32,000 nt of DNA, taken from positions 1,440,380 through 1,472,379 of the forward strand of contig NC_018664.1 of the NCBI RefSeq assembly GCF_000299355.1. Reading direction: 5' to 3'. Positions within the stretch are counted from its first letter, which is position 1; each line of letters opens with the position of its first letter. The stretch is from Gottschalkia acidurici 9a. Lineage in GTDB: Bacteria; Bacillota; Clostridia; Tissierellales; Gottschalkiaceae. Below, piece after piece: positions 6,225 to 27,541 of this stretch. A program made the translations under genes and the position numbers. The notes below the pieces were generated by a model, which saw only the letters and a list, made by a program, of their open reading frames with translations, ran no database searches and was not told where the DNA came from.

Positions 6225-7452
6225 TGAAAAACCAGAACTTTTAGCACCAGCAGGAGATTTAGAAAAACTAAAATTTGCAATAGCTTATGGAGCAGATGCA
6301 GTATATTTAGGTGGTTCAAAATTTGGACTTAGAGCTTCAGCTAAAAACTTTACAATAGAAGAAATGGAGCAGGGTGTTCTATATGCACATGAAAGAGGAA
6401 AAAAAGTATATGTTACTTTAAATATGATACCTCACAATGAAGATCTAATAGGAATGTCAGAGTATGTTAAAGAATTAGAAAGAATAGGTGTAGATGCAGT
6501 ATTAGTGGCAGATCCTGGTGTACTAGAAATAGTGAAAGAGAGTGCACCTAAATTAGAAATACATTTAAGTACTCAAGCTAACACTACAAACTATGTAGCT
6601 GCAAACTTTTGGTATAAGCAAGGAATAAAAAGGGTAGTAGTTGCTAGAGAGCAGTCATTAGAAGAAATAAAAGAACTTAGAGATAAAGGAAATAAAGAAT
6701 TAGAAATAGAAGCTTTTGTTCATGGAGCTATGTGTATATCTTATTCGGGAAGATGTCTGTTAAGTAACTATATGACTCATAGAGATGCAAATAGAGGAGA
6801 ATGCGCACAGTCATGTAGATGGAGATACTACCTTGTAGAGGAAAAAAGACCTGGCGAATATTTTCCAATAACAGAAGATGAAAAAGGAACATATATATAT
6901 AATTCTAAGGATCTATGTATGTTAAATCACATACCTGAGCTTATAGAAGCTGGAATAGATAGCCTTAAAATAGAAGGAAGAATGAAGAGTCCATACTATG
7001 TAGCTACGGTAATTAGAGCATATAGAATGGTTATAGATGAATATCTTAAGGATCCTCAAAACTATAAGATGGATAATAAGTGGTTAGAAGAAATAAAAAA
7101 AGCTAGCTATAGGGACTTTACAACAGGATTTTACTTTGAAAAGCCAGATCAAAATGAGCAGTTATATGATACTAATTCATATATAAGAGGATATGACTTT
7201 GTGGGATTGGTATTGAACTACGATGAAAAGAACAAGATAGCTACTGTAGAACAAAGAAATAGGATATTTGTAGGAGATGAAATAGAAATATTTGGACCTA
7301 ACAAAGAATATTTTACTCAGAAAATAGAAAAAATGTGGAATGATAAAGAGGAAGAAATCGATGTAGCTCCTCGTGCACAACAAAAGATAAAAATAAAAGT
7401 AGATCATCCAGTTGAAAAAATGGATATATTAAGAAAAGAATTAAATATATAA
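6217..7452 (+). CDS. U32 family peptidase (probable tRNA hydroxylation protein TrhP-like)
   Basis: PELLAPAGDLEKLKFAIAYGADAVYLGG, HGAMCISYSGRCLLSNYMTHRDANRGECAQSCRW, DLCMLNHIPELIEAGIDSLKIEGRMKSPYYVA motifs. Confidence 0.92.
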   Translation: MLNEKPELLAPAGDLEKLKFAIAYGADAVYLGGSKFGLRASAKNFTIEEMEQGVLYAHERGKKVYVTLNMIPHNEDLIGMSEYVKELERIGVDAVLVADPGVLEIVKESAPKLEIHLSTQANTTNYVAANFWYKQGIKRVVVAREQSLEEIKELRDKGNKELEIEAFVHGAMCISYSGRCLLSNYMTHRDANRGECAQSCRWRYYLVEEKRPGEYFPITEDEKGTYIYNSKDLCMLNHIPELIEAGIDSLKIEGRMKSPYYVATVIRAYRMVIDEYLKDPQNYKMDNKWLEEIKKASYRDFTTGFYFEKPDQNEQLYDTNSYIRGYDFVGLVLNYDEKNKIATVEQRNRIFVGDEIEIFGPNKEYFTQKIEKMWNDKEEEIDVAPRAQQKIKIKVDHPVEKMDILRKELNI

Positions 7453-7515
7453 ATAAGAATACCCCTACTGAAAGTTGGAAATAATTTTAATAAAGACTTT
7501 AGTGGGGGTATTCTT

Positions 7516-9192
7516 ATGGGAAAATATGAAAAAGATAATACATATAAAAGAGCTAAAATAATTGCATCGTTTATGGTAAGTATATTTCTATCGTTAATGG
7601 TAAGACTTTATTTTATTCAAATGGTAAAAGGCGAAAAATATCAAGAATTAGCAATGAATCAACAAATATTTAATATTGAGAGTTCTCTATCAAGAGGAAT
7701 AATATTTGATAGGAATGGAAAAAAGTTTACAAATCAAGATGAAGAAAAAGTCTTATATATTTTTAAAAAGAATATAAAAGATAATAAAAAAAATATTGAA
7801 GAATTGAAAAAAGCACTAAAATATAGTAATAAAGAAATTGAGAAATTACTAAATAGTTCTGATTCAGTTATAGAAATTTCTCTAGATAATAAGGATGTTA
7901 ATTTAGATAAATTATCTAACATAAAGGATGTTGTCATAGTTGATAAACAGAAAAGAAATAATGATAAAAACATTTTAGCACATGTTATAGGTTATATTAA
8001 TGAAAAGGACAATATAGGATTAAGTGGAATTGAAAAAGCATTTGATAAAGAGCCATTGAAGGCTAATATAAACCATGGCAAAACTCCTATATTTGTAGAT
8101 GCTAAACAAAGAGTAATTCCTGGTGTAAGTGCAGATATAGGTAGAGGAGAGGTAACTGGAATAGCTAATAGTTTAAAATTAACTATAGATTACGATATAC
8201 AAGAAAAAACAGAAGAGATACTAGATAAAAGTAGAAAAAAAGGGGCTGTAGTTGTATCTGAGGTTGATAGTGGAGATATAATAGCGATGGCAAGTAGACC
8301 TAATGTGGACTTAACAAATATAAAAGAAGAGTTAAATAAACATGATCAAAGATTTTTTAATAAATCATTAGAATTGTCATATCCACCAGGATCTATATTT
8401 AAAGTACCAGTACTATTAGCAGCACTTGAAAAAGATGAAGTATCATTAGAGGATAAAATTTTTTGCAAAGGCTATGAAGAAGTAGAGAATACAATTATTA
8501 ATTGCAATAAAAAGGGAGGACATGGAGAGATTACTGTATTTGAAGGACTTTATAATTCATGCAACTCTACATTTATCCAAATAGGCAAAAAGATAGGAGC
8601 AGAAGAGATAGTGAAAACTGCTAAGGTTTTAGGATTTGGAGAAAAGATAAATATAGGTTTAGAAGATGAAAGTAAAGGAAATCTTCCAAAAGGGAAGGAC
8701 TTAGTAGGTCCCGCAATAGGTAACATATCTATAGGTCAGGGTAATATTGAAGTTACGCCATTACAAGTGACTAATATGATGATGATTGTCGCTAATGGTG
8801 GAGTAAAGAAAGATATGTCTATAGTAGATAGTTATGTTACGGCACAAGGTGCACATGGGAAAAAAATAAGAAGAGAGAGTGATCAAAGAGTTTTATCAGA
8901 GGATTTGGTTAATATGGTAAAAAAGGGATTAGACGAGGTAGTTCAAAGAGGAACAGCTAGTAATATAGAAATGAGAAGTATAGGTGGGGGTGGAGGAAAA
9001 ACAGGTTCGGCTCAGGCTGTACTAAATGGAAAAGAAACCGTACATGCATGGTTTACTGGGTACTTTCCCAAGGATAAGCCCAAATATGTAATAACTGTAT
9101 TCATAGAGAGCGGCGACTCAGGTAGTACACAGGCTGCACCTGTTTTTGAAAAGGTTGCAAAAGAAATATATAAGATTGAGAATAAAAAATAG
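7516..9192 (+). CDS. Penicillin-binding protein, class B (PBP2/SpoVD/FtsI-like) transpeptidase
   Basis: Catalytic YPPGSIFKVP (SxxK), YNSCNSTF (SxN), KTGSAQ; N-terminal TM then SRGIIFDRNGK. Confidence 0.92.
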   Translation: MGKYEKDNTYKRAKIIASFMVSIFLSLMVRLYFIQMVKGEKYQELAMNQQIFNIESSLSRGIIFDRNGKKFTNQDEEKVLYIFKKNIKDNKKNIEELKKALKYSNKEIEKLLNSSDSVIEISLDNKDVNLDKLSNIKDVVIVDKQKRNNDKNILAHVIGYINEKDNIGLSGIEKAFDKEPLKANINHGKTPIFVDAKQRVIPGVSADIGRGEVTGIANSLKLTIDYDIQEKTEEILDKSRKKGAVVVSEVDSGDIIAMASRPNVDLTNIKEELNKHDQRFFNKSLELSYPPGSIFKVPVLLAALEKDEVSLEDKIFCKGYEEVENTIINCNKKGGHGEITVFEGLYNSCNSTFIQIGKKIGAEEIVKTAKVLGFGEKINIGLEDESKGNLPKGKDLVGPAIGNISIGQGNIEVTPLQVTNMMMIVANGGVKKDMSIVDSYVTAQGAHGKKIRRESDQRVLSEDLVNMVKKGLDEVVQRGTASNIEMRSIGGGGGKTGSAQAVLNGKETVHAWFTGYFPKDKPKYVITVFIESGDSGSTQAAPVFEKVAKEIYKIENKK

Positions 9193-9225
9193 AAAATTGT
9201 ACTTGCACAAAAGTTAAGTAAGTCT

Positions 9226-9233
9226 CATATAAT
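9226..9233 (+). promoter_or_regulatory. Possible -10 element (CATATAAT) of the sigK promoter; sigma class ambiguous
   Basis: CATATAAT about 50 nt upstream of the likely ATG at 9278, with TTGCAC at 9203-9208; resembles mother-cell -10 (CATAnnnT) but the -35 is not a clean match. Confidence 0.3.
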
Positions 9234-9277
9234 CTTATATATAACTTTTTCTCATAATTCTGGAGGTGCAAGACTTA

Positions 9278-9664
9278 ATGATAACTTCATTAATATCAAA
9301 TTTAACTTTTTTAATAGAACCTATTTTGTTACTAGTAGGATATGTTTCTAATAATAATTCTTTTCCGAAACCTTTATCGCAAGAGGAAGAAAGTCATTAT
9401 CTTATTCTATATGAGCAAGGTGATGAGAATGCTAAAAATATATTAATAGAGAGAAATCTTAGACTAGTAGCACATATAGTTAAAAAATATAATAATACAG
9501 GAAGAGAAACAGACGATCTTATTTCAATAGGAACAATAGGGCTTATTAAAGCTATAAATACATTTGACAGGAATAAAAAAGTAAGATTGGCTACATATGC
9601 AGCTAGATGTATTGATAATCCAATCATTACTTTTCGGAACGAATTTGCCATAGCACAAAAATAA
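9278..9664 (+). CDS. sigK: RNA polymerase sigma-K factor, N-terminal half (interrupted by skin-type element)
   Basis: MITSLISNLTFLIEPILLLVGYVSNNNSFPKPLSQEEE...NLRLVAHIVKKY...DLISIGTIGLIKAI...ATYAARCIDN, then 14 foreign residues (PIITFRNEFAIAQK) and a stop. GGAGGT at 9262-9267 favours ATG 9278 over the GTG at 9266. Confidence 0.95.
   Translation: MITSLISNLTFLIEPILLLVGYVSNNNSFPKPLSQEEESHYLILYEQGDENAKNILIERNLRLVAHIVKKYNNTGRETDDLISIGTIGLIKAINTFDRNKKVRLATYAARCIDNPIITFRNEFAIAQK
9609..9619 (+). repeat. attL core direct repeat GTATTGATAAT
   Basis: Identical to 21167..21177; located exactly where homology to SigK stops. Confidence 0.95.
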
Positions 9665-9678
9665 GCCCAGCCTTTCCA

Positions 9679-11319
9679 TTACCTTTTTTCATATTTAGCA
9701 CCAAACATAACTATATCTATATTTTCTCCATCCCATGTAATTCTGTCTACTAAATTTCTAATTAGACTTCTCTTTTCATCATCTTCGGCATCATCAATCG
9801 TATTCTTAAAAATATTTATCATACGGTTCATTATTTCAAAATTTTCTTCTAGAGAGTGCTTGTCATCAATGCTTTCCCTTAAATCTAATAACTTTTCTTT
9901 AAGATTAGCATTTTCACTTTCGAGTTTATTAATTTGATCTAATATGTGCTTAGCTGCAAGACTTCCTTCTCCTTGTGCTAGAGCATTGATTAAGTTAGCT
10001 ATAGACTTGTTGTTAGATTCAATGTTTTTTTTAAGTATATCAATTTCAGACTCTATATTACTTTGAGATGTTTCTACAGCTACTTTATCATCTTTAATTT
10101 TACTATGAAGTCTTGATTCTTGAGAGGATAATCTTTTAAGTTCTTCTATAACTAATTTATCTAATTTATCACCTCGAATATTCTTGATGTTACAGTTCTG
10201 CCCACGACTCTTTTCTTTTAACTCACATAGATAATAGTATGCTATAGATTTATCTTTGTTAACTCTAGTAGCACCTTTTCTCATGAAACTGCCACAGTTT
10301 TCACAAATCAGTATTCCACTTAATAAAGCATTTGTATTTATGTATCTCTTTCTTAATCCTTTGTCTCTATTCATTTCCATTATTTCATTAGCTTTAATCC
10401 ACATATCACTTGAGATAATACCTTCGTGATCCCCAACAGATATTATCCAGTCTGATTGGTCTCTATTTCTATCAGTAGTACCTTTTACTTGTGTAGTCTT
10501 ATTGTAAGCCATGACTCCATGCTCTCCATCAAAATCAGTTTCATCGGCAAATATTGCATGGCCATTGCCTATAAGATAATTGTAAAGCTTTTTATCTGCT
10601 GTAGCATATACTGGATTCTCTAAGATTATTTTTAAAGTATGTACATAGAAGTTAGCACCATTTTTTGATTTTATATTATTTCGTAGACAATAAGTTTCTA
10701 ATCCAGTAAGAGATTTGATCTCAATATACTTATTATATAACAATTTCACTAACTCAACTTCTTCTTGTACAGTTGATAATTTGTATGCTTTTCTTTGTTT
10801 TCCATTTTGATCCAACATTATAATTTCCTTAGAGATAAATCCGGTAGGAGTAATACCTCCTAGCCAGCGCCCAGTCTTAGCTAATTGTTGCAAGTTATCT
10901 CTTATTCTTTCCGCTATAGTTTCTCTCTCTAGTTGAGCAAATACACTAGCAATGTACATCATAGCTCTACCCATAGGGGTAGAGGTGTCAAACTGCTCTC
11001 TTATAGACACAAAAGAAACATTATAGTTTTGTAGCTCTTCTATAAGTACGGCAAAGTCTGCTATATTTCTGCTTATTCTATCTAACCTATAGCATATAAG
11101 TACGTCAAATTTCTTTTGCTTAGCATCCTTTAACATAAGTTGAAATTGAGGTCTATCAGTAGTCCCACCAGAAAAACCTTCATCTTCATATACTGTTATA
11201 TCGTCATTTGAAATATTAAAATGATTATATGCGTACTCTTTACACATTTGTACCTGATTCTCAATAGATTCACCTTTACCGGTAAATTTTGATTTACGTG
11301 AATAGATTACAGCTTTCAT
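9679..11319 (-). CDS. Large serine recombinase (skin excisionase/integrase, SpoIVCA/CisA functional class)
   Basis: MKAVIYSRKSKFTGKGESIENQ (catalytic Ser), YEDEGFSGGTTDRPQFQLML, RLDRISRN, FAQLERETIAERI, zinc-ribbon CENCG...C, C-terminal coiled coil; stop codon 60 bp from attL. Confidence 0.96.
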   Translation of the reverse strand: MKAVIYSRKSKFTGKGESIENQVQMCKEYAYNHFNISNDDITVYEDEGFSGGTTDRPQFQLMLKDAKQKKFDVLICYRLDRISRNIADFAVLIEELQNYNVSFVSIREQFDTSTPMGRAMMYIASVFAQLERETIAERIRDNLQQLAKTGRWLGGITPTGFISKEIIMLDQNGKQRKAYKLSTVQEEVELVKLLYNKYIEIKSLTGLETYCLRNNIKSKNGANFYVHTLKIILENPVYATADKKLYNYLIGNGHAIFADETDFDGEHGVMAYNKTTQVKGTTDRNRDQSDWIISVGDHEGIISSDMWIKANEIMEMNRDKGLRKRYINTNALLSGILICENCGSFMRKGATRVNKDKSIAYYYLCELKEKSRGQNCNIKNIRGDKLDKLVIEELKRLSSQESRLHSKIKDDKVAVETSQSNIESEIDILKKNIESNNKSIANLINALAQGEGSLAAKHILDQINKLESENANLKEKLLDLRESIDDKHSLEENFEIMNRMINIFKNTIDDAEDDEKRSLIRNLVDRITWDGENIDIVMFGAKYEKR

Positions 11320-11426
11320 TTTAAAACCCCTTTATGTTTATTATGTCAATTATATCAAATTTTGAAATAATAAAAAGCTAATAAGTTAATAATAGATTCA
11401 ATATTTATTATATTTATTTAAAAACA

Positions 11427-11463
11427 TAATAAGAGGCCGAATATAAAGTAGTCAGCCTCTTAT
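11427..11463 (-). terminator. Intrinsic terminator downstream of CotF-like gene
   Basis: 10-bp perfect arms AATAAGAGGC / GCCTCTTATT; T-rich continuation on the minus strand. Confidence 0.7.
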
Positions 11464-11478
11464 TGTGTAAAACTATAA

Positions 11479-11772
11479 CTATTTTATTGTATCTTGAGAT
11501 TCACTATAAGCATCTAGTAATTGTTGAGTAGGCGTATTATAAGGTTTTTCCCATCCTTTTTGAACAGATAGTTCTGTTACTGCAGTATGTCCGCCTAATA
11601 CTTGGTTTAAGCTTGCTAAATACATTGCTCTTAATTCTGGAGTAGTGGCAGCCATACTAGAAGTAAGATATGCTGTTGCACCAGCAGAAGCACTAGAAAT
11701 CATGCTGTTAGCTATAACTTCATCACTTATATTTGTAGTATCTTTTACTTTATTAGTAAGAAAAGAAGCCAT
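11479..11772 (-). CDS. CotF-family spore coat protein
   Basis: MASFLTNKVKDTTNISDEVIANSMISSASAGATAYLTSSMAATTPELRAMYLASLNQVLGGHTAVTELSVQKGWEKPYNTPTQQ matches the coat F pattern (DxVIAxDxL...TPELR...H..(x)6KGxYxxY). Start assigned to 11772 because AGGGAGG lies just upstream; the ORF-track start 11811 adds 13 residues. Confidence 0.8.
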   Translation of the reverse strand: MASFLTNKVKDTTNISDEVIANSMISSASAGATAYLTSSMAATTPELRAMYLASLNQVLGGHTAVTELSVQKGWEKPYNTPTQQLLDAYSESQDTIK

Positions 11773-11773
11773 A

Positions 11774-11992
11774 TTATTGTACCTCCCTTGTTGGTGTAAC
11801 TTGATTTTCATTAATAAACTGTTGAATTCCTTTTATTCTTCCCTCTGTTGCTAGAATACCAGCTTCAGCTTGTCTTTTTAAATCTTCATCTGTAATTAGT
11901 GTCTGCATAGCTTTAGAAACTATTAGACCATCTTTCTCCATCTTTAATAAGCCTGTTAGTGATAATAATTCACTTTCCGTAAGTTTTCTCAT
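11774..11992 (-). CDS. Small protein upstream of and coupled to CotF-like gene; probable spore coat-associated protein
   Basis: MRKLTESELLSLTGLLKMEKDGLIVSKAMQTL...; stop lies inside the RBS/start region of the CotF-like gene, implying translational coupling. Confidence 0.6.
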   Translation of the reverse strand: MRKLTESELLSLTGLLKMEKDGLIVSKAMQTLITDEDLKRQAEAGILATEGRIKGIQQFINENQVTPTREVQ

Positions 11993-12270
11993 CTTTTAAC
12001 CTCCAACTTGAAAATTAATTTTGATAACATCAATAGTATGTCAATTTTAGGACATAACATTCCAGGAACTAAATACCAAAAAAAGAATCAATCAAGCAGG
12101 ATTTATATAGATATGAAATAATTGAAACAGAAGAATAACTTTTTATATACAGAAGTTTAAAAAGTCTGTAAGTAACTAGTAAGTTGGAAAGTTAGTGAGT
12201 TTATAGAGATAAAAAAATTATAACTCCTGAAATATTTGAAGAATTAAAAGGATGGAGGGATTAAAGGGAA

Positions 12271-12310
12271 GCACAGTTGGTTCCCAAATTGGATAGTATG
12301 AACCAACTGC
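12271..12310 (-). terminator. Hairpin downstream of KTSC gene, possible terminator
   Basis: CAGTTGGTTC ... GAACCAACTG arms; weak T tract. Confidence 0.5.
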
Positions 12311-12331
12311 AATTTAGAAATAGCAGATTAT

Positions 12332-12535
12332 CTAACTCATTTTTATACAAGGATAAGAGCCTTTTATATTATCACGATGATACTTACCTTTAGAAGAGGC
12401 AGTTAGTAACCCTTCGTATATATGTTGCGGAATTTCACTATAAGCATATGTGCCGCTATGAAATTCAATTAATAAGTTTTTAGATGAAGGATCATAACTA
12501 ATAGTTTTCAAGTTACTTGAAGATACAGGTATCAT
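12332..12535 (-). CDS. KTSC domain-containing protein
   Basis: VSSSNLKTISYDPSSKNLLIEFHSGTYAYSEIPQHIYEGLLTASSKGKYHRDNIKGSYP matches the KTSC domain pattern; upstream GGAGGTG. Confidence 0.85.
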   Translation of the reverse strand: MIPVSSSNLKTISYDPSSKNLLIEFHSGTYAYSEIPQHIYEGLLTASSKGKYHRDNIKGSYPCIKMS

Positions 12536-12793
12536 TTAAATACATTCACCTCCTATAAGCAAATATTATTATATGAAAAGAAGTGGATAATTAAACAAGA
12601 AGATACTGGTTAACATAAAAAGTGAAAATTGACAAGAAGCATTAGAGAGTAATATCAGTAATAATATGGGCTATAATTAGCACTAATAAAATCACTAGAT
12701 GATAAAACAATTAGATTAATGACAAAGTTAAAGTTAATAGGACAAAACATATAAGGCATATATATAAACACTAGCAATAAGGAGTTGAGTGTT

Positions 12794-13000
12794 TTGAATA
12801 TCAGAGTACACTTTCCTACGACGGAGGAAGGAATGGAGGAATTACAAGAGAGGATAGATGAAGCACATGCACATTTAATTATGAATCGTATAAATAACCT
12901 TAACTGGAGTTATGAGGACAAAATTGCTTTAGTTAAGCAAATAAGAGGAGAGCTAAAAAGAAGAGGTGAGCAGAAAGTGTCCTTGGAGGCACCTAGTTAG
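12794..13000 (+). CDS. Small charged protein, candidate recombination directionality factor or phage-type accessory protein
   Basis: MNIRVHFPTTEEGMEELQERIDEAHAHLIMNRINNLNWSYEDKIALVKQIRGELKRRGEQ; AAGGAG 9 nt upstream of the TTG at 12794 (ORF track starts at TTG 12785). Confidence 0.65.
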   Translation: MNIRVHFPTTEEGMEELQERIDEAHAHLIMNRINNLNWSYEDKIALVKQIRGELKRRGEQKVSLEAPS

Positions 13001-13054
13001 TAAAGAAAAGGAGAGTTCATATATAAATTTAAGAATATCTTGCAAAGCGAGTGA

Positions 13055-13080
13055 ATTATTAACTTCATGAAGTTAATAAT
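13055..13080. repeat. 26-bp perfect palindrome ATTATTAACTTCATGAAGTTAATAAT
   Basis: Read directly; each base pairs symmetrically around CATG-centre (TTCATGAA). Confidence 0.9.
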
Positions 13081-13513
13081 AAATGAACTTGGATAGAAAT
13101 TGATATTAACTATATTTATTAAGAAAGATGGTGAATGAGAATGAATTTAAATTACGTAAACACCACGTGAAATATTAGGTTTAAGTAGAAATGACGTAGT
13201 GGGATCACTAGTTGATAGAAAAATAGATATAAATTAAGAGGTCTAACATGCTCTGAAAGAGGAGCAAGGAATCCATCGCCAGATATTATTGTAGAACTTT
13301 TTTAAATATAGAAAGAACCATTTTAAACTTAAAGAGATTTCAGATATAAATGAAGAATAGGACAAGCATATAGTTATGAAATACTAGATAACATAGATTG
13401 AATAATTTAAGGAACATAGTACTGAAGCTACTACAAGAACATAGAGAATTATATGACGTATTAAGTAAATTACTTACCATAATTACTAATATGAAAGCAT
13501 TCCTAAACTAGTA

Positions 13514-13885
13514 ATGATTGATAAGAGACTTAGTATAGAAATTAAGGCTATATATGTCTACATGGCAAGCTATGCAGGAGCAGAAGACACAGCTTTTCCT
13601 GGAGTTGAATTAATGATAGAGCATTTACGTATAAGCGAAAAAAGATTTTATAAATATAGAAAGGAGTTAGTAGATCAAGACTATGTTTCAATAACTAAAA
13701 CTAGGAAAGAGAATAACATCTATACACTAAATCAAATAATAAAATCTCAACACAGTCAATTTGAATGCGTTCAAAGTGTTGCTACTAATAATAGTAGTAT
13801 TAAAAAACAACACAATAAAAAAATAGAAAAAGTCATGTGTGTGTTAGATAAAAAATTGTTTTTGATAAGGCTAGAAAGATACTAA
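13514..13885 (+). pseudogene. Phage/plasmid-type replication or helix-turn-helix protein N-terminal domain, likely truncated
   Basis: LSIEIKAIYVYMASYAGAEDTAFPGVELMIEHLRISEKRFYKYRKELVDQDYVSITKT resembles the N-terminal wHTH of phage replication proteins; the C-terminus runs into unrelated sequence and surrounding DNA is full of frame-disrupted coding remnants. Confidence 0.6.
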
Positions 13886-14125
13886 AAGTATCTAATGAAG
13901 ACATTGACATTGTAAAAGAGAAATATGAAATTACTAAGATATCTGGGTATAAAATCTAATGATATTCAAGATAAAAGCAATATAAGAGAATAGGTAGATG
14001 CCTATTTCACAGTTTTAAGCAAAGGATAAGTAAATATAGTCTAGAATAATTGGAAAAGACGATACTTGAAAGAAGACAGGAAAGTAATTTAAAAGACTTA
14101 GACTATGTTAGAATAATTCCTTAGT

Positions 14126-14155
14126 AAAAAAAGTAAGTGGACAAACTCCACTTAC
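14126..14155 (-). terminator. Intrinsic terminator of the DUF1259 gene
   Basis: GTAAGTGG / CCACTTAC hairpin followed on the minus strand by TTTTTTT. Confidence 0.85.
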
Positions 14156-14203
14156 CCCAAGTTTAAAAATAAAATAAGGTGCGATTGTTAATATTAGTTT
14201 AAT

Positions 14204-14695
14204 TTAATATATCATATAGTCATCATCATTATAGTCATAAGACCTATCATAATCTTTATGGTTATCACTATGCTTACGACGATCACAATCTTCCAAGATT
14301 TCAAAAGCTCTAGCTACTTTATTTGCAAAATCTATAGGATCATCTATAGAAAAAAAGTGAATATAAAATAATCTTGGCTTGTCAAATAGCCAGTGATTAT
14401 GAAGAGCTGTAACTTCAATGCCTTCTCTACGAAGTTCACTAATAAATGGATTAATTTCTTCTTGCAATATAACAGTTTCTCCTAAGTTTAGAGTTTTACC
14501 TTTACAATCCATTGATTCAAATGAAAAAAGAGCGTTAAGAACAAGTGGACTTTCAGTTCGTATTCCTTCAATGGTTGCTTTAATATTTCTCATACGCGTT
14601 ACTGCACATAGACCATCAGTGGATGTTAAAATCTCACTTTCAAGAATACGTGCGAATCTTCTACACAAGTTAGATGAACTATTATTTGAACTCAT
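14204..14695 (-). CDS. DUF1259 (LpqO-like) domain protein
   Basis: GLCAVTRMRNIKATIEGI, GKTLNLGETVILQEEINPFISELRREGIEVTALHNHWLFDKPRLFYIHFFSIDDPIDFANKVARAFE is the DUF1259 signature (GE..LLEDEVNPVM..L...GIEVTALHNH). Confidence 0.85.
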   Translation of the reverse strand: MSSNNSSSNLCRRFARILESEILTSTDGLCAVTRMRNIKATIEGIRTESPLVLNALFSFESMDCKGKTLNLGETVILQEEINPFISELRREGIEVTALHNHWLFDKPRLFYIHFFSIDDPIDFANKVARAFEILEDCDRRKHSDNHKDYDRSYDYNDDDYMIY

Positions 14696-14975
14696 TATTA
14701 TTTCTCCCCCTCAATAATATAGTATGTCCAAGGCTTAAAATTGTTACTAAAAATTATAAGGAGGTGAATATTTTAATAGATTATATGAGTTATTAGAGGT
14801 GTACTTTAATAGCTAGTGGTGTCTTGTAAAAGCTAAGTATCATAATAAGTGTCCGTGATATAGGATTAGATATTTTATTCTTGGTTCAATCATGGTCTCA
14901 TAAGAGAAAAATAATGGCAGTGCTAGATCATATACTCTCAGATCAGATTCACTTCAGTCTTATTCATCATTTAGA

Positions 14976-15455
14976 TCACCAGTAGCATGCAATATTTGGA
15001 CTTTCTAAATATAAACATTTGTATAGTACCTGAGGTAGAATTCTCATAGATATATATTTACTTCTGTCTTTTTTTATATCTTTGTTTTCATAAGCAGCAA
15101 TAAAATTCCATCCACGATCGTTAACTGCTGTTATACGTACAGTTCCTTGTATCATATAAGCCCACTCTGATTGCTGATGCCAATGAACCTCACGTATGCC
15201 ACCAGGTGTCAATCGCTTCCATTGTGGTTGCTACTGGAAGTTCCCTAGCAGTAATCTCACGAGACTGTCCACTTCGTCTTAATACCATAGTAGTATCAGA
15301 AAAAGAAAATTTCAAGTTGGGAATCACACCAGTATCTGTAGCATGTGAGACAAGCATGTTATGATTTCGAAGATCCCGAAGGATATTACGTGGGTCTGCA
15401 TCGGTTGCACCATCTCCATTTTTTATAGGATGTGGTATATATCCAGTAAGTTAGT
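14976..15455 (-). pseudogene. oxdC: Oxalate decarboxylase-like bicupin, decayed (frameshifted N-terminal cupin only)
   Basis: Minus strand: [65 protein letters not shown] (frame 1) then [39 protein letters not shown] (frame 2), both diagnostic of OxdC/YoaN; C-terminal cupin missing. Confidence 0.88.
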
Positions 15456-15555
15456 TACTATTACTCTAATATCTTATTAAGTAAGGATAATATGATTAAC
15501 ACAAATAGCTTGGATAGCATGGATCAATATAAACTAATGAGATGCTCACAGTTAC

Positions 15556-15760
15556 TTTACATTTAGAGAGTACTGTGCAGAATAAATTTAAGGCTCATTA
15601 ACGGACATATTATTTAAGTTGCAATTTAATAAATAGAAATGTTTTTGAAAATTAAATAATACGGTGTTCAAAGGTTGATGAAATTTATGTCGAACCATAA
15701 AATATATGTTACATATGGTATAGTATTAGTATACGTTAAGTTGTAGTAATTAGATATTGT
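15556..15760 (+). repeat. Diverged dispersed repeat copy A
   Basis: Shares TTTACATTTAGA(G/A)AGTACT and GAAAAT..AATAAT..GGTGTT.AAA.GTT and (T)AGATATT(G/A)TGT blocks, in the same order, with 16672..16880. Confidence 0.65.
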
Positions 15761-15792
15761 GTCATAGTTCATTTACAAAGGAGAAGGACATA

Positions 15793-16044
15793 ATGAAAAA
15801 AGATATAAATATAAAAAAATTATATTTATTCACATTTCTATCTTTCATTTTAATCTTATTATTTCTTTATTTATTTTCACAGAAAGCTCCATACTTTTAT
15901 ACGGGATTCGATTACCATACAATACCAAATAGATTAAGCAAACTTGCAAACTTCACATTTATAATTTTAATTCTGATTAACTTTATATGTGTATTATTAT
16001 CTATTTTTTATTCAATAAAGATAATATTTAATAAAATTAAGTAA
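15793..16044 (+). CDS. Small two-TM membrane protein, unknown function
   Basis: MKKDINIKKLYLFTFLSFILILLFLYLFSQK...FTFIILILINFICVLLSIFYSIKIIF; GGAGAAGG RBS before ATG 15793. Confidence 0.6.
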   Translation: MKKDINIKKLYLFTFLSFILILLFLYLFSQKAPYFYTGFDYHTIPNRLSKLANFTFIILILINFICVLLSIFYSIKIIFNKIK

Positions 16045-16151
16045 CAGTCTGACTTAGTTTGTTCTACACTAACTGAGTCACAAAATTATTGTTTTATAAC
16101 ATAACTGTTAAAGAATATGCAATAATACGATAGATAATAAGAGGTGAATTT

Positions 16152-16349
16152 ATGGATAAAAGAGATAAACAAGGTAAACACATGATAGGGAAATGTAAAA
16201 AAAATTCTATGATTAATTTGTCAGAGTCAATAAATCGTTCAACAATAGGTGATTTAGGTGAGTTAACAAGATTGGGATGGATCTCCAATATTATCATTAT
16301 AGTTATTATTATTGGAATATTATTTTTTCTCTCCAAATGCTCTAATTAA
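16152..16349 (+). CDS. Small single-TM protein, unknown function
   Basis: MDKRDKQGKHMIGKCKKNSMINLSESINRSTIGDLGELTRLGWISNIIIIVIIIGILFFLSKCSN; GAGGTG RBS. Confidence 0.55.
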   Translation: MDKRDKQGKHMIGKCKKNSMINLSESINRSTIGDLGELTRLGWISNIIIIVIIIGILFFLSKCSN

Positions 16350-16440
16350 GTTAAATCATAATCATATTAGAGTATTATGATGTAAAAACATATCAGTAAA
16401 CACGCTTGATCTATAATATTTATAACTTGAGGGTTACTTA

Positions 16441-16500
16441 TATTATTCAAAGTTGAATTTTACGGTATTATTATATTTAAATTCAAGTAAAAAGATAAGT
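16441..16500 (+). repeat. Diverged dispersed repeat fragment
   Basis: TATTATTCAAAGTTGAATTTTACGGTATTATTAT matches TATTATTCAAAACTGAATTTTACGATGTTCTTAT at ~18748. Confidence 0.55.
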
Positions 16501-16547
16501 TTAAAGTCAGCAAGATTAGAAAGGAGCTTATGAAATAGAGGTGACAT

Positions 16548-16649
16548 ATGGAAGATAAGAAAGAAAAACTAAAAGAACAAATGAAGGAATATATAGATAA
16601 TTTACTTAGATTAGCAGAAGATGAAGGACGCTGGACTATTTTGAAATAG
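16548..16649 (+). CDS. Putative 33-aa peptide
   Basis: MEDKKEKLKEQMKEYIDNLLRLAEDEGRWTILK; upstream GAGGTGAC RBS-like sequence. Not in the ORF track because of length. Confidence 0.4.
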   Translation: MEDKKEKLKEQMKEYIDNLLRLAEDEGRWTILK

Positions 16650-16671
16650 AAGTAAAAAACAATAAAGGTCA

Positions 16672-16880
16672 TTTACATTTAGAAAGTACTATACAGAATA
16701 GGTCTAGAGTTTATTAATAGATAAACTGTTTAAATTACAGCTAAACTCATATAAAAGTTCTTCGAAAATCGAATAATGTGGTGTTTAAAAGTTAACGTGC
16801 TTTTACCTAGCTATAAGATATGTGGAAAATATGGTATAATTTTGATAGTAATTAATTCATAATCGTTAGATATTATGTAC
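16672..16880 (+). repeat. Diverged dispersed repeat copy B
   Basis: See 15556..15760. Confidence 0.65.
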
Positions 16881-16917
16881 AAGCAGTAAGTAAGTCTATA
16901 GGAGGAATTAGTCATTG

Positions 16918-17247
16918 TATAAGGAAAAAACGAAAATCATCAAACTCATTTTAGAAAAAGATTTAGAGTCTTTATATGTGGGAGTATGATCTCAGCTACC
17001 CTTTTAGGGGTATATGGTCAGGATATTGCTTATTATATAAGTGACCATATAGAAAAATTATCTCCTGTGTATTGTAAGCAATAACACTGATAAGTATAGT
17101 ATTGTTTTTAACTACATCCATATTAATATATATACCCATAAAAAACAAAAACTGAAAAGATTTATTCCATATTTGATTATTAATAGTCTTATAGGTATGT
17201 TGATTTCTATGCTTTCATTATTAGTTATGATTATGTGGTGGGGATAA
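16918..17247 (+). pseudogene. Frame-disrupted small membrane protein remnant
   Basis: Hydrophobic fragments in different frames: GSMISATLLGVYGQDIAYYISDHIEKLSPVYCKQ*, FLTTSILIYIPIKNK and LKRFIPYLIINSLIGMLISMLSLLVMIMWWG*. Confidence 0.4.
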
Positions 17248-17316
17248 TGGTAATTACTTTATAATTTTTAGATATAATAAAAATGGGCAAACATTCATGA
17301 AACTGTAAAAGAAGAA

Positions 17317-17523
17317 ATGAATCAAACTATTTTTGTGAAAGATGGCAAGGTAATATGTCATCTACATGGGAATCCTGAAAATACTGGAATAGGGTTCAAC
17401 TTTGGTACATATCTGCTAAATTCAAAAGAAGGCAGATACATTAGTTTTATGTCAAAATCAAAGTTATCATTTAAAATTACGGTCTCAGAGAATGGTATAA
17501 GATATTTTGAATATGTTAAATAA
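17317..17523 (+). CDS. Small protein of unknown function
   Basis: MNQTIFVKDGKVICHLHGNPENTGIGFNFGTYLLNSKEGRYISFMSKSKLSFKITVSENGIRYFEYVK; compositionally protein-like, no recognised family. Confidence 0.4.
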   Translation: MNQTIFVKDGKVICHLHGNPENTGIGFNFGTYLLNSKEGRYISFMSKSKLSFKITVSENGIRYFEYVK

Positions 17524-18280
17524 ATTAATATTCTTCGCAATATTATTTTACGACACAATAGTTAGATAATGCTATATCTGTAATTATGATAGCAGGATAT
17601 GAAAAAAGTTATCTTACTTTTTCGTGATTATTTTTTGAATTGGTGTAAAATCACTTGTTATCTTTCTTTTACCAATACCGAATTCAAAAAGAAATGTATT
17701 TACAACTGACATAAAGATGGTGATAAATCTACCAGATGAAGCAGATTGTGAAGCGATTGTAAGAACTTATACAGCAAAATAATTTAATAAATTTAATATC
17801 CATCAACTCACTAAAATTAAAGATAAAGTAGGAGGAAACATAGAGGGTGATATTCTAGCACTATACTTAAAAGACGGAAAAGGGATTTTGAATTTTTTCT
17901 TTAAAAAAATAAAACTAATGTAAGTTTTGATGATGTTTCGGATGTTAAAATAACTGCTTTTTCTACAATGGGATTGGCCACAGTAGATGAACAGGAAAAG
18001 AGAGTAATCAACGGACAACTTAAATAAGATGAGAAAGGAATGTATTCTTATGAGATCCAACGTTACTATACTCAGTATGAAAAATGGTTTATGGAGTCCA
18101 TTCTTATAGAAGTAAAGTATCAAATTGATGGAAATGGATATGTATCAGTATTTGCAGTAACTACAACAAATGCAGAAGATGGTTCCAATTTCTTTGAAAA
18201 CGAAACATTAAATAATCCTATTGAACCTGAAGAATAAAATCAGTAAAGTTACAGATATTTAATTTTAAAGGTCAGTATCT

Positions 18281-18730
18281 ATGTTGAGACTTTTTCTATT
18301 CAAAATAAATAGGAGGTGTAGAGAATTGAGTAAGCATAAGGCAGATTTGGATTTAAGATCAAGTATGATTTTAGCTCTTATACTATTAGCTTTATCACTA
18401 ATTGTAAGTCAGATTTCTGATGAAAAGATTAAAATGAATATAATAATTATTTTATTTAGCATTATGACTATTGCACTACTATATAGAAGTTATAAAGACT
18501 TTAAAGATAAGACTTACTCTACTACTATATTTATAGCATTAACTAACATAGCAATAATCATTTTAGGTATATTATATATGTTTGTATTTTTAAGATACTA
18601 TCAAGTTACAGACATTAACCTTATAATAAAGATGAGAAAAACTGAACGTATACTTAGTGTATTTATATTTGCTATGATATTTTTAAAAAACTTTTTAAGA
18701 AGCGAAAGATTTGTAAATAGAGATAAATAG
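18281..18730 (+). CDS. Membrane protein of unknown function (several TM helices)
   Basis: ...LRSSMILALILLALSLIVSQISDE...IIIILFSIMTIALLYRSYKDFKD...TIFIALTNIAIIILGILYMFVFLRYY...; likely true start at TTG ~18326 after AGGAGG. Confidence 0.6.
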   Translation: MLRLFLFKINRRCRELSKHKADLDLRSSMILALILLALSLIVSQISDEKIKMNIIIILFSIMTIALLYRSYKDFKDKTYSTTIFIALTNIAIIILGILYMFVFLRYYQVTDINLIIKMRKTERILSVFIFAMIFLKNFLRSERFVNRDK

Positions 18731-18731
18731 T

Positions 18732-18880
18732 ATTTAAAACACCGTATTATTCAAAACTGAATTTTACGATGTTCTTATGTTAAAATTCAAATGAAAATTA
18801 ATGAAAACATAGGTATGAAGTTAAAAAATTGATAAGAAGGATATACAGAATAGATTTAAGGCTCATTAATAAATTAATTA
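18732..18880 (+). repeat. Diverged dispersed repeat copy C with partly inverted block
   Basis: ACAGAATAGATTTAAGGCTCATTAA matches 15576..15600 (GCAGAATAAATTTAAGGCTCATTAA); AACACCGTATTATT (18739..18752) is the exact reverse complement of AATAATACGGTGTT (15655..15668). Confidence 0.65.
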
Positions 18881-18905
18881 ATTTTAAAAATTTTAATAAA
18901 TAAGA

Positions 18906-18945
18906 GGCAAATTCCCTTATCTAAATAAGCATAAGGTAATTTGCC
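18906..18945 (-). terminator. Terminator of YmaF-like gene
   Basis: GGCAAATTCCCTTAT / ATAAGGTAATTTGCC (14 of 15 pairs) just downstream of the minus-strand stop at 18960. Confidence 0.7.
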
Positions 18946-18959
18946 GTTATATTACAATA

Positions 18960-19505
18960 TTAAGATATAGGATCCTGAATTAGTGTTGCAAATACAATTT
19001 GATGGAAGTGTCCATCATCAAAAGTTGTTCTAGCCTTAACAAAATGAATGTGTTTTCCGTTACCTACATCAATAGCTGGACCAGTTTCAGTACCAAGTTC
19101 ATGATGGTGGTTTACGAAGAAATCAGTATTAGTTAGTAGAGCATGTTTATGGCCACCACCAGGTAGAGGAATTGCCTCACTAGTAACTCCTGCAACACGG
19201 TGATTATGACGATCGTCACACTCTTCCGCTAATTTAGTGCTACCTAAGAATTCATGCACGTGAGATTGAGTTCCTTCTTCATTTTCATCACAATGGTCAT
19301 GACGCTTACGTCCATAATACTCATTTTCTCTATAGTCATCATATTCATTATAATAACGATCTTTATCACAATCGTGTTTATGTTTCTTTTTATCATCTTT
19401 ATTACAATCATGTTCATGCTTCTTTCTATTATCCTTATCACAGTGGTTATGACAAGGGGGATTTATTCTCTTTATGCTTTGAATAATATGACAAAATAGA
19501 CACAT
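18960..19505 (-). CDS. YmaF family protein with His/Asp/Lys-rich N-terminal extension
   Basis: HVHEFLGSTKLAEECDDRHNHRVAGVTSEAIPLPGGGHKHALLTNTDFFVNHHHELGTETGPAIDVGNGKHIHFVKARTTFDDGHFHQIVFATLI is the YmaF signature. Confidence 0.88.
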   Translation of the reverse strand: MCLFCHIIQSIKRINPPCHNHCDKDNRKKHEHDCNKDDKKKHKHDCDKDRYYNEYDDYRENEYYGRKRHDHCDENEEGTQSHVHEFLGSTKLAEECDDRHNHRVAGVTSEAIPLPGGGHKHALLTNTDFFVNHHHELGTETGPAIDVGNGKHIHFVKARTTFDDGHFHQIVFATLIQDPIS

Positions 19506-19967
19506 CCTTATTATTAATTTATTGGCGAGTATACAATTTTTGTTATATACAAGCTATATTACATTATATGCACCTATCCTTAATGAGTGACTTGAAAAAA
19601 GTGTTTTACTTAAACATTTAGGAAGTTAAAATTAAAAGAAAAGTTAATTCAAACTTAGAAGAAATGATGTGAAAAAAGTATATAATTAAATAAGTCCTAC
19701 CGAATATACCGACAGACACTTTAGACAAAACTACTAAGATTAAAGTGTATTTTTTTATTGTGGGTAGGTTCAACATGAATTACCTTTTGAGGATTAAAAT
19801 AGTTATAGGTTAGGCTATAGAGCTAATTTATAGTTTTTACCTAAATATTATACTATAATCTTCAAATATAGTACTTTGTAAAGTGTTCCTAGAGTCTGGT
19901 AAATATATGATAAAATAAGTGTAATTAATTATATTTACACAAACACAATATCATATGTGTTAAGGAT

Positions 19968-20321
19968 GTGAAGAGAATAGAATTAAGAAAAATAATCTCA
20001 AAAAGTCTACAGGGAGTACTAGGTGTAATAAGTTCAATTCTATTTACAATAAGTTTTCCTTATTTCGGATGGAACTTTGTAATAAATGTTACAAAAGCAT
20101 TTGAAAATATAGGTTTTAGTATTGATCTAGTTGGACGTCCAGGAACTTATGATCCTGGAGCAGTTATTGTATCAGGATTATATTTATTGACAATATTGTT
20201 AGCTTCTTATCTTACTATTAAAAAGACAAAGTATAAACTCTATGGTAAAATAATTTTGTTCAGTGGAATACTCATGACTATCATGGTTTTTGTATTAGTT
20301 AGTTCTATGATATGGTTCTGA
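19968..20321 (+). CDS. Multi-TM membrane protein, unknown function
   Basis: ISKSLQGVLGVISSILFTISFPYFGWNFVINVTKAF...VIVSGLYLLTILLASYLTI...IILFSGILMTIMVFVLVSSMIWF. Confidence 0.6.
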   Translation: MKRIELRKIISKSLQGVLGVISSILFTISFPYFGWNFVINVTKAFENIGFSIDLVGRPGTYDPGAVIVSGLYLLTILLASYLTIKKTKYKLYGKIILFSGILMTIMVFVLVSSMIWF

Positions 20322-20649
20322 TTATACATAATGATAAACTACAGTATGAGTTTTGAATGTTTAACATTAGAGTAAATGAAGATAGTTAATTTAGTGAACT
20401 AAAGGCTGGATCATATCAAGCTATAGAGGTATATTTTTCATGCCTAATATTTACTTAAGCTATATCATATATTTAACCATGTGAAACTTAATTAGAATAG
20501 AAGATGACTATATAATTGAGTTTTAATTATACTTTCTGTTTCAGTGATTTTTATTATTTTTTGACTGTTATTTTGGAAAAAAGTAAGAGTAGATCTTATA
20601 CACAATTATCATTAAAATAACAAAAGATTACGAGATATATGGAAATGCT

Positions 20650-20769
20650 ATGGGAAAGGCGACTTTATCTATAAGAATATTAATTCTGGTTATGGTAATG
20701 ATTTTTCTACTTGATAATTCTGAATTAATTTCAGTAAGGTTTTTATATGTATTCTATTTATTAATATGA
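20650..20769 (+). CDS. Putative 39-aa TM peptide
   Basis: MGKATLSIRILILVMVMIFLLDNSELISVRFLYVFYLLI; weak RBS. Confidence 0.25.
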   Translation: MGKATLSIRILILVMVMIFLLDNSELISVRFLYVFYLLI

Positions 20770-20850
20770 TATAGAAAAAATATAACGGTAGCATGATCTA
20801 GTTTAATCACAAAAATTATTAAATTGATAAGTAACAATACAAACTGTATT

Positions 20851-20894
20851 AATAGACTAGACTATTGAATGACTCTATATCTAGTCTATTTTTT
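20851..20894 (+). terminator. Strong intrinsic terminator
   Basis: AATAGACTAGA / TCTAGTCTATT 11-bp perfect stem followed by TTTT. Confidence 0.8.
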
Positions 20895-21007
20895 ATATAG
20901 AAAACAACAAAATATGTACAATTAAAAGAATTAATATAAAAATCACCTTTTAACTTTAATTTTAAGACTACTAAAAACAACTATAATATTATAAAAAATT
21001 AAGGAGC

Positions 21008-21145
21008 CTAATTGAAATGCATCTCAATTAATTTACTAAAATCTTCTTTAGTTAGATTTAATGATCTTCTCGTGCTTTTTATTATTCTTCCACCTACAGT
21101 ACTAAGGTTATATAAAGACTTTAAGTTATCAACAGTCTTGCTGAA
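21008..21145 (-). pseudogene. Coding remnant, HTH-like, no start codon
   Basis: Minus strand frame YFSKTVDNLKSLYNLSTVGGRIIKSTRRSLNLTKEDFSKLIEMHFN*; preceded by a stop, no ATG/GTG/TTG start found. Confidence 0.3.
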
Positions 21146-21166
21146 ATAAAACGTTCCAGATCACAA

Positions 21167-21177
21167 GTATTGATAAT
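21167..21177 (+). repeat. attR core direct repeat GTATTGATAAT
   Basis: Identical to 9609..9619; SigK homology resumes here. Confidence 0.95.
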
Positions 21178-21549
21178 GAAATACTTATGACGATACGATC
21201 GTGTAAAAAAACACAATCAGAGGTTTCACTACAAGACCCTATAGGAGTAGACCGTGAGGGTAATGAATTATCACTTATGGATGTACTGGGAACAGACCCA
21301 GATGAAATAACAGATAAGGTTCATCTCAAAATCGAAATAAAAAAGCTTTATGATAAGATAAGCAAGGTTTTAAAAGCGAGAGAAAAAACCATAATACAAC
21401 TTAGATATGGTCTTTTAAATGGTGAACGTAAGACTCAGAGAGAAATAGCTGATATGCTTGGAATTTCAAGGTCATATGTATCCAGAATTGAAAAAAGAGC
21501 TGTACAAAAATTATCAAAAGAATTTAATTATGAAATTAAAGGAAGGTAA
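21178..21549 (+). CDS. sigK: RNA polymerase sigma-K factor, C-terminal half
   Basis: EILMTIRSCKKTQSEVSLQDPIGVDREGNELSLMDVLG...REKTIIQLRYGLLNGERKTQREIADMLGISRSYVSRIEKRAVQKLSKEF (region 4.2 HTH). Confidence 0.96.
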   Translation, partial: EILMTIRSCKKTQSEVSLQDPIGVDREGNELSLMDVLGTDPDEITDKVHLKIEIKKLYDKISKVLKAREKTIIQLRYGLLNGERKTQREIADMLGISRSYVSRIEKRAVQKLSKEFNYEIKGR

Positions 21550-27483: not shown

Positions 27484-27541
27484 ATATAAAGACAAGTTTA
27501 AAGTAAAAATAAAACTTTAGGACAAGAAGGAGGGAAGTTGA

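Follow-up and report, generated by a model that had tools for sequence, protein, structure and literature searches.

How does Gottschalkia acidurici 9a, described as an endospore former, obtain sigma-K from a sigK gene that is reported only at one locus and is split there by more than 11 kb of intervening DNA? We analyzed the 32,000-nucleotide stretch that holds this locus (NCBI RefSeq assembly GCF_000299355.1, contig NC_018664.1, positions 1,440,380–1,472,379 of the forward strand; hereafter the window, with coordinates counted from its first letter). Our analysis indicates that the intervening DNA is very probably a skin (sigK-intervening) element, that is, an 11.56-kb non-replicative prophage remnant in codon 114/115 of the native sigK, which would be excised in sporulation by its own large serine recombinase (LSR), with direction and timing most likely provided by a 68-aa protein.

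The two parts of sigK join into one intact gene

The 5′ part of sigK (spoIVCB equivalent, Curi_c13480; plus strand) extends from the ATG at 9278 to the AAT at 9619 and comprises codons 1–114, ending in ...ATYAARCIDN; the annotated open reading frame (ORF) continues into the element to 9664, giving 128 aa. The 3′ part (spoIIIC equivalent, Curi_c13620; plus strand) occupies 21178–21549 and holds codons 115–237 (123 codons, beginning EILMTIRS...) plus the stop at 21547–21549. An initial annotation of this DNA had placed the end and resumption of sigK homology at 9619 and 21178 and had proposed that joining the two parts restores a 237-aa SigK. All of these coordinates check: neither part is interrupted by a stop or frameshift, and 9278–9619 joined to 21178–21549 yields an in-frame 237-aa ORF. 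The joined protein scored 365.9 bits against the SigK equivalog model TIGR02846 (cut-off 298.65) in a single stretch covering model positions 4–227 of 227, and the SigE models stayed below their cut-offs. Its alignment with nine intact SigK proteins (69–76% identity) is gap-free through the junction, where C111, I112, N114, E115, I116, L117 and M118 form invariant columns.

In the two closest relatives inspected, intact sigK lies in the same chromosomal place, 3′ of the U32 peptidase and penicillin-binding protein (PBP) genes, and DNA of intact relatives across the insertion site reads AGATGTATAGATAATGAAAT. This shared synteny places the insertion in the native sigK locus. In relatives with intact sigK (L150–L152), the U32 peptidase and PBP genes also flank a gene for a PRK-family kinase, which is absent here (window 7452–7516).

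Upstream of the conserved YVSNxxSFPxPL, the reconstructed protein has an N-terminal extension of ~21 aa, presumably a pro-sequence; by analogy with B. subtilis, a pro-sequence checkpoint is likely to operate in addition to excision. A candidate sigK promoter of the mother-cell sigma type, AC-N16-CATATAAT (9207–9234, plus strand), lies 43 nt upstream of the ATG as a regular-expression match, a pattern with a background of 7% per 160 nt. It contains GCACAAAAG, a loose SpoIIID-like box, and a sigma-70-like match overlaps it.

A large serine recombinase borders the element and belongs to a clade that mostly targets one sigK codon pair

At the left edge of the element, convergent with the 5′ part of sigK, lies an LSR gene (Curi_c13490, 546 aa; 9679–11319, minus strand) that ends 59 nt from the left junction. 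Its product, 100% identical to a G. acidurici 9a protein, carries the Resolvase (PF00239, 9.9e-42), Recombinase (PF07508, 2.2e-18) and Zn_ribbon_recom (PF13408, 2.6e-12) domains, all above the cut-off, and matches the PHROG integrase family phrog_95 (1.4e-116). The ORF is full length with all domains; the motif IYSRKS points to Ser10 as the catalytic residue, and a coiled-coil-like stretch can be read from the sequence at about residues 400–500. A TG-extended TATAAT, a housekeeping-type −10 element, lies upstream of the gene; it is compatible with constitutive expression and is not evidence for it.

We then surveyed the LSR clade with one genome per species, which gave 80 loci whose LSRs are 45–61% identical. 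In 68 of them, no more than 250 bp separate the LSR 3′ end from a sigK fragment, and in each case the gene is broken at the same codon (N114|E115), with the DNA reading ...TG(T/C) NTN GAN AA(T/C) | GA(A/G) AT..., that is, C-I/V-E/D-N | E-I-L-M. Among the other 12 loci, four or five lie on contigs too short to judge. The LSR is convergent with the 5′ part of sigK, as in the window, in 15 loci, including the closest relatives Brassicibacter, Marinisporobacter, Anaerosolibacter, Anaerovirgula and Wukongibacter; the other 53 have it just upstream of the 3′ part and in the same direction. Complete elements of the clade range from 2.1 kb, with the recombinase only, to >11 kb, and predicted prophages of 24–42 kb in IMG/VR carry LSRs of the same clade at their ends, abutting sigK. 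Such a gradation, from phage down to stump, is what would be expected. C. perfringens phage CP51, which encodes the closest phage integrase (43% identity), was not used as a relative; no sigK-type attP motif was found downstream of its integrase.

Several loci of the survey are unusual in themselves. The closest relative, Brassicibacter mesophilus (L001, 9583–11658), has a 2.1-kb element that consists of the recombinase only; its distal half-site is degenerate (11 of 27 positions symmetric, no TTTCC motif), and the element may be an immobilised stump. In the metagenome-assembled genome Bacillota OH_CBlB_339 (JAEYYB010000093.1; L019, 7511–15594), sigK lies in three pieces: an element of this LSR clade occupies N114|E115, and a second insertion of ~3.5 kb with a distant LSR (21% identity) occupies the downstream GGNAATGAA site, so that two independent excisions would be needed to rebuild the gene. 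Locus L057 (5336–13584) has two clade recombinases (7641–9254 and 11939–13564) and two copies of a small ORF, described below, between the sigK halves, an arrangement that suggests two tandem elements sharing a site. The contig of L023 holds, 8 kb apart, a sigK 3′ fragment that adjoins the recombinase (2644–3018) and a full-length sigma gene (11047–11682); the latter is 49% identical to the window SigK over residues 22–234.

Attachment sites share an inverted-repeat architecture centered on AA

The repeat at the two junctions, already pointed out in the initial annotation together with an element length of ~11.56 kb, is the 11-mer GTATTGATAAT at 9609–9619 and 21167–21177. It has no other copy on either strand of the 32-kb window, and by our own arithmetic its chance of occurring at one given position is ~2e-6 at the window's 29% GC. 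From one repeat to the other the distance is 11,558 bp, with one copy counted.

To read the recombination sites, we compared the junctions of the relatives. Junctions were taken by codon-anchored extraction, as longest-common-substring calling had given chance cores. The relatives share one architecture, in which the right end of the element reads ...ATGTTTCCG-N7-AGGATAGCA-AAT and the left end GCTATCCT-N7-CGGAAACAT, so that the attP formed by excision has inverted-repeat arms on either side of AA. This AA is invariant in the reconstructed attP of 17 complete elements, in which 11–23 of 27 positions are symmetric. In the window, attL (9590–9646) consists of the attB-left half-site, the central AA at 9617–9618 and the attP-right half-site TCCAATCAT-N7-CGGAACG, and attR (21148–21204) of the attP-left half-site (CGTTCCA-N7-AGTATTGAT), the central AA at 21175–21176 and the attB-right half-site. 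The corresponding attP, AACGTTCCAGATCACAAGTATTGAT-AA-TCCAATCATTACTTTTCGGAACG, is symmetric at 15 of 27 positions, and the predicted circle junction, from the right end of the element to its left end, contains ...CACAAGTATTGATAATCCAATC.... Thus the ends of the element combine an 11-bp common core with inverted-repeat half-sites, in an architecture that recurs in 16 related complete elements.

Cleavage by serine recombinases falls around a central dinucleotide, and no duplication results. On this basis, the crossover is predicted to fall at the central AA, at 9617–9618 and 21175–21176. We rejected the reading of the 11-bp repeat as a target-site duplication, both because serine recombinases make none and because the relatives share only AATG or AAATG; the repeat consists of the crossover dinucleotide and of an attP half-site that by chance has the sequence of the attB half-site. 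The central dinucleotide alone sets the recombination polarity of serine integrases. The two orientations found in the clade appear to differ only in whether this dinucleotide reads AA or TT relative to the integrase gene, which fits the polarity rule.

A conserved small ORF is a candidate directionality factor

The minimal relatives of 2.7–3.2 kb have only one conserved gene besides the recombinase, an ORF of 55–76 aa. Its homologue in the window is a 68-aa ORF annotated as hypothetical (Curi_c13520; 12794–13000, plus strand), which begins with TTG after an AAGGAG ribosome-binding site. A profile built from the minimal-relative ORFs detected the family in 18 of 19 complete elements and in 33 of the 80 related loci; it is the only gene other than that of the LSR common to nearly all complete elements, and it usually lies directly upstream of the recombinase, on either strand. 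An exhaustive search of a 1.84-billion-protein library returned 55 cluster representatives of the family, nearly all of 52–107 aa, and a word-indexed protein search with the window ORF returned the organism's own two annotations only. An AlphaFold2 model of the 68-aa protein (pLDDT 91.6) has a short extended N-terminal segment followed by a helical hairpin.

Upstream of the ORF lies a conserved promoter-like motif, ATAGGACAA-N8-CATATATA (ATA-N17-CATATATA; 12737–12764, plus strand), whose sequence in the window is ATAGGACAAAACATATAAGGCATATATA. Across the family the motif takes the form (A/C)ATA-GGACAA-N8-13-CATA(T/C)A. The pattern G[GT]ACA[AGT]-N8-13-[CA]ATA occurs 23–72 nt (mostly 40–58) before the start in 21 of 35 family members, compared with 1.2% of random 110-nt windows, and the form ATA-N16-18-CATANA in 14 of 35, against a background of 1.0%. 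ATA-N17-CATAxAxT is a sigma-E promoter form. Also upstream of the ORF, TAGGACAA matches 8 of 10 positions of the SpoIIID consensus TAGGACAAGC, a high-affinity SpoIIID site. We read the ATAGGACAA-N-CATATA motif as a putative sigma-E-type promoter with a SpoIIID-like box. This mother-cell-type motif is conserved upstream of the small ORF and not upstream of the LSR. From the co-occurrence and the conserved motifs, the 68-aa ORF is most likely a recombination directionality factor (RDF) whose promoter would confine excision to the mother cell.

The only perfect match to TAGGACAAGC in the window lies at 13358–13367 (plus strand), between the small ORF and a truncated replication gene, with no ORF of at least 40 aa immediately downstream. 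Outside the element, a SpoIIID-like box with one mismatch, TAGGACAAGA, occurs at 27518–27527 (plus strand), 15 nt upstream of a 326-aa ORF (27542–28522).

The cargo is that of a decayed prophage with sporulation-associated genes

Most of the intact cargo belongs to families of spore-coat type or associated with sporulation. A CotF-type spore-coat-like gene pair (11479–11992, minus strand; 72 aa at 11774–11992 and 110 aa at 11479–11811) matches Coat_F at 8.4e-17 and two PHROG families of unknown function, phrog_30315 and phrog_38518, which indicates that such genes travel on phages. A DUF1259 protein of 163 aa (14204–14695, minus strand; PF07485, 8.5e-38) and a YmaF-family protein of 181 aa (18960–19505, minus strand; PF12788, 5.1e-37) belong to the same group. 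A weak sigma-K-like pattern lies 22 nt upstream of the DUF1259 gene; we gave no weight to sigma-K or sigma-E patterns upstream of it or of the YmaF gene, since their background is 4–7% per random 160 nt. The intact cargo further includes a 67-aa KTSC-domain protein (12332–12535, minus strand; PF13619, 6.2e-20) and three small membrane ORFs.

Other parts are decayed. The gene at 13514–13885 (plus strand) retains the N-terminal third of a DnaD-like phage helicase loader (HTH_36, 5e-7; phrog_7882, positions 25–144 of 314), and a cupin (oxalate-decarboxylase-like) pseudogene at 14976–15357 (minus strand) persists as two short frames, a 78-aa fragment with a Cupin_1 match (9.6e-7) and an adjacent 55-aa fragment in another frame. 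Coding density is low from 15.4 to 19 kb, with long stretches that hold no convincing ORF. When the ORFs were scanned against Pfam and PHROG, the integrase and the truncated replication gene gave the only phage-type matches, and genes for structure, packaging, lysis or conjugation did not turn up. By these scans the element lacks the gene set of a functional temperate phage. An Rfam scan of the whole window found no family above threshold.

The element compared with known sigK insertions

The element was already catalogued in silico, and we found no experimental work on it in the literature. In a survey of 180 Firmicutes that found split sigK in 15 species, Galperin et al. 2022 (bioRxiv 10.1101/2022.02.25.481979) listed the same element in their Table S7 and Fig. 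S4 (G. acidurici 9a, CP003326.1, 1,450,043–1,461,566; 11.5 kb, 13 ORFs), with the spoIVCB-like Curi_c13480 (128 aa), the spoIIIC-like Curi_c13620 (120 aa) and the SpoIVCA-like Curi_c13490 (546 aa). According to a footnote there, element limits are gene-based and unadjusted for terminal repeats; compared with the present analysis, the listing is without att sites, crossover position, RDF candidate or promoter. The 2012 genome paper listed sigK as Curi_c13480 alone and mentioned no interruption. Possibly new here are thus the att architecture found across the clade, the crossover at AA, and a candidate RDF that has a conserved promoter; the element itself, with its locus tags and coordinates in Table S7, is not.

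The insertion resembles the skin element of B. subtilis in several respects. There, too, the recombinase gene adjoins the 5′ part of sigK and runs opposite to it, and the N-terminal extension of sigma-K is kept. The B. subtilis recombination site contains AATGA and the spoIVCB ORF is only 129 aa long; from these literature values, rather than from an alignment, we infer that the B. subtilis skin breaks the same Asn-Glu codon pair. Its site has been stated to differ from the downstream site used by skinCd, skinCt and phiS63. The B. subtilis element differs in size (48 kb versus 11.6 kb here) and has no cargo in common with the window element, and the tree of Galperin et al. puts the Tissierellia recombinase in another group than those of Bacilli. 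A viral collection queried with SpoIVCA yielded no confirmed relative.

The 14.6-kb skinCd of C. difficile is similar in size and likewise combines an LSR (CD1231) with a small RDF. However, it lies at another sigK site (about residue 130) and in another orientation, and C. difficile sigma-K is without the pro-sequence that is present in G. acidurici. A third group comprises the C. perfringens phage phiS63 and B. cereus AH820-type insertions, which also integrate into sigK by serine integrases at an AATGA-containing core, but at the downstream site (nt 423–427, core GTAATGAAAT). phiS63 is a complete, inducible and functional sigK-integrating phage, whereas the G. acidurici element is a remnant. 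In the window, the break follows nt 342 (codon 114), not the insertion site of C. difficile, C. tetani and phiS63; that downstream site is intact, as GTAATGAATT (21260–21269, plus strand), with 9 of the 10 bases of the phiS63 core, is unoccupied in the window sigK.

Taken together, the element is an ordinary member of a widespread kind. The initial annotation had suggested a distinct skin lineage on the grounds that the cargo resembles neither known element, a suggestion that we abandon. The LSR sits in a large clade that uses one sigK codon pair, the literature values point to the B. subtilis skin site as well, and unshared cargo is the rule for skin elements: Galperin et al. found no gene other than the recombinase common to all of them. 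The same annotation's reading of an LSR-bearing element in a sigK that requires excision fits all in-silico tests (the LSR, the att symmetry, the sigK halves and the related elements); the separate lineage falls away, and excision in the mother cell stays a proposal.

A model of excision and its alternatives

The in-frame join of the split sigK into a full-length SigK, the site-specific recombinase at the edge of the intervening DNA and the recombination sites at both ends are features of a skin element. We propose that during sporulation the LSR of the element would pair attL with attR, cut at the central AA (9617–9618 and 21175–21176) and swap strands, thereby releasing the element as a circle and leaving an intact sigK that encodes a 237-aa pro-sigma-K. 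The forespore chromosome would retain the element, which would thus be inherited. Direction and timing, that is, excision only and in the mother cell only, would most likely be set by the 68-aa protein (12794–13000), expressed from the sigma-E-type promoter with its SpoIIID-like box. Excision, its cell specificity, the AA crossover and the RDF role are what we infer from sequence.

Recombination of attL with attR by serine integrases requires an RDF. The proposed logic is that of C. difficile, a timed RDF, at the B. subtilis site. In C. difficile, CD1234 is a 72-aa acidic RDF whose sigma-E- and SpoIIID-dependent expression sets mother-cell-specific excision, and the recombinase CD1231 is constitutive; in B. 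subtilis, the RDF Skr (64 aa) is needed for excision and is encoded on the same strand as spoIVCA, overlapping its 5′ end, whereas the candidate here is separate, on the opposite strand and 1.5 kb away. Both CD1234 and Skr serve as precedents for the proposed RDF role.

Several observations weigh against this scheme. The small ORF matches no Pfam or PHROG family, and a search of its model against the PDB gave no match better than E=6, which is unsurprising because known RDFs share no fold. It lies 1.5 kb from the LSR instead of adjoining it, the B. mesophilus element has no such ORF, and its promoter was assigned by resemblance to a consensus. At the att sites, the symmetry of the window attP is only moderate and its inner half-sites depart from the clade consensus, with CAAT in place of CTAT. 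A search of metagenomes with a degenerate 31-nt pattern for attB, attP, attL and attR gave 0 hits, a result that says nothing either way on empty sites or circles. Finally, sigK is reported only here in the literature; among the 120 best SigK matches, no named one is from G. acidurici, and most are without a source name.

The points concerning the small ORF leave room for another timing mechanism, in which excision follows mother-cell-specific expression of the LSR and the small ORF encodes something else, for example a regulator or an immunity-type protein. Such timing has been reported for spoIVCA, which in B. subtilis is under sigma-E and SpoIIID, and the LSR start is immediately preceded by a CATAATAAACATAAA stretch; the lack of similarity to known RDFs and the absence of the ORF from B. 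mesophilus fit as well. On the other hand, even B. subtilis requires an RDF, the −10 element upstream of the LSR is of the housekeeping type, like that of the constitutive CD1231, the small ORF is the one further gene that nearly all complete elements have in common, and the mother-cell-type motif is conserved upstream of it and not of the LSR. We therefore regard LSR-timed excision as unlikely, though it is the alternative that survives best.

The att-site and metagenome results could instead be taken to mean that the insertion is fixed and dead, sigK being a pseudogene in a strain that uses another sigma gene or sporulates poorly; the decayed cargo, with its cupin pseudogene, truncated replication gene and low coding density, points the same way. 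However, the LSR is full length, the sigK parts join without a lesion into a protein above the equivalog cut-off, and neither the small ORF nor its promoter motif is damaged. The CAAT deviation is the same on both arms of attP and the outer GGAAC motifs are equally spaced on both sides, and so we read it as co-variation with the element's own recombinase rather than as decay. The organism, moreover, is reported to form endospores, and reports place sigK at this locus alone; we consider a dead insertion very improbable. That the element is still an active phage or integrative element, excising and transferring also in vegetative cells, is the least credible reading: its clade does include LSRs at the ends of predicted prophages and a functional sigK-integrating phage is known in C. 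perfringens, but 11.6 kb with large non-coding stretches, an integrase and one-third of a replication gene as the only phage-type matches, and no structural, packaging, lysis or conjugation genes make it too small and decayed for that.

Excision by the element's own LSR under the control of the 68-aa protein is thus the reading that we prefer. A broader generalization has about an even chance of being right: that the 68-aa ORF founds an undescribed RDF family for the LSR clade targeting CI(D/E)N|EILM of sigK across Clostridia and Tissierellia, with the ATAGGACAA-N-CATATA promoter (sigma-E type, SpoIIID box) as the mother-cell switch and insertion in either orientation by flipping of the central AA/TT relative to the integrase gene.

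The practical yield of the analysis is an attL/attR pair with its predicted crossover dinucleotide, a recombinase clade with one highly conserved target and one candidate RDF with a conserved promoter, which together open sigma-K activation in non-model clostridia, and its control, to direct testing and could supply a new orthogonal integrase/RDF pair. It also corrects an annotation trap, in which sigK appears as a 128-aa gene and an unrelated-looking 120-aa gene. For the biology of the organism, the element would add one more species to the textbook mechanism of reconstituting a developmental gene by excision of a prophage remnant.

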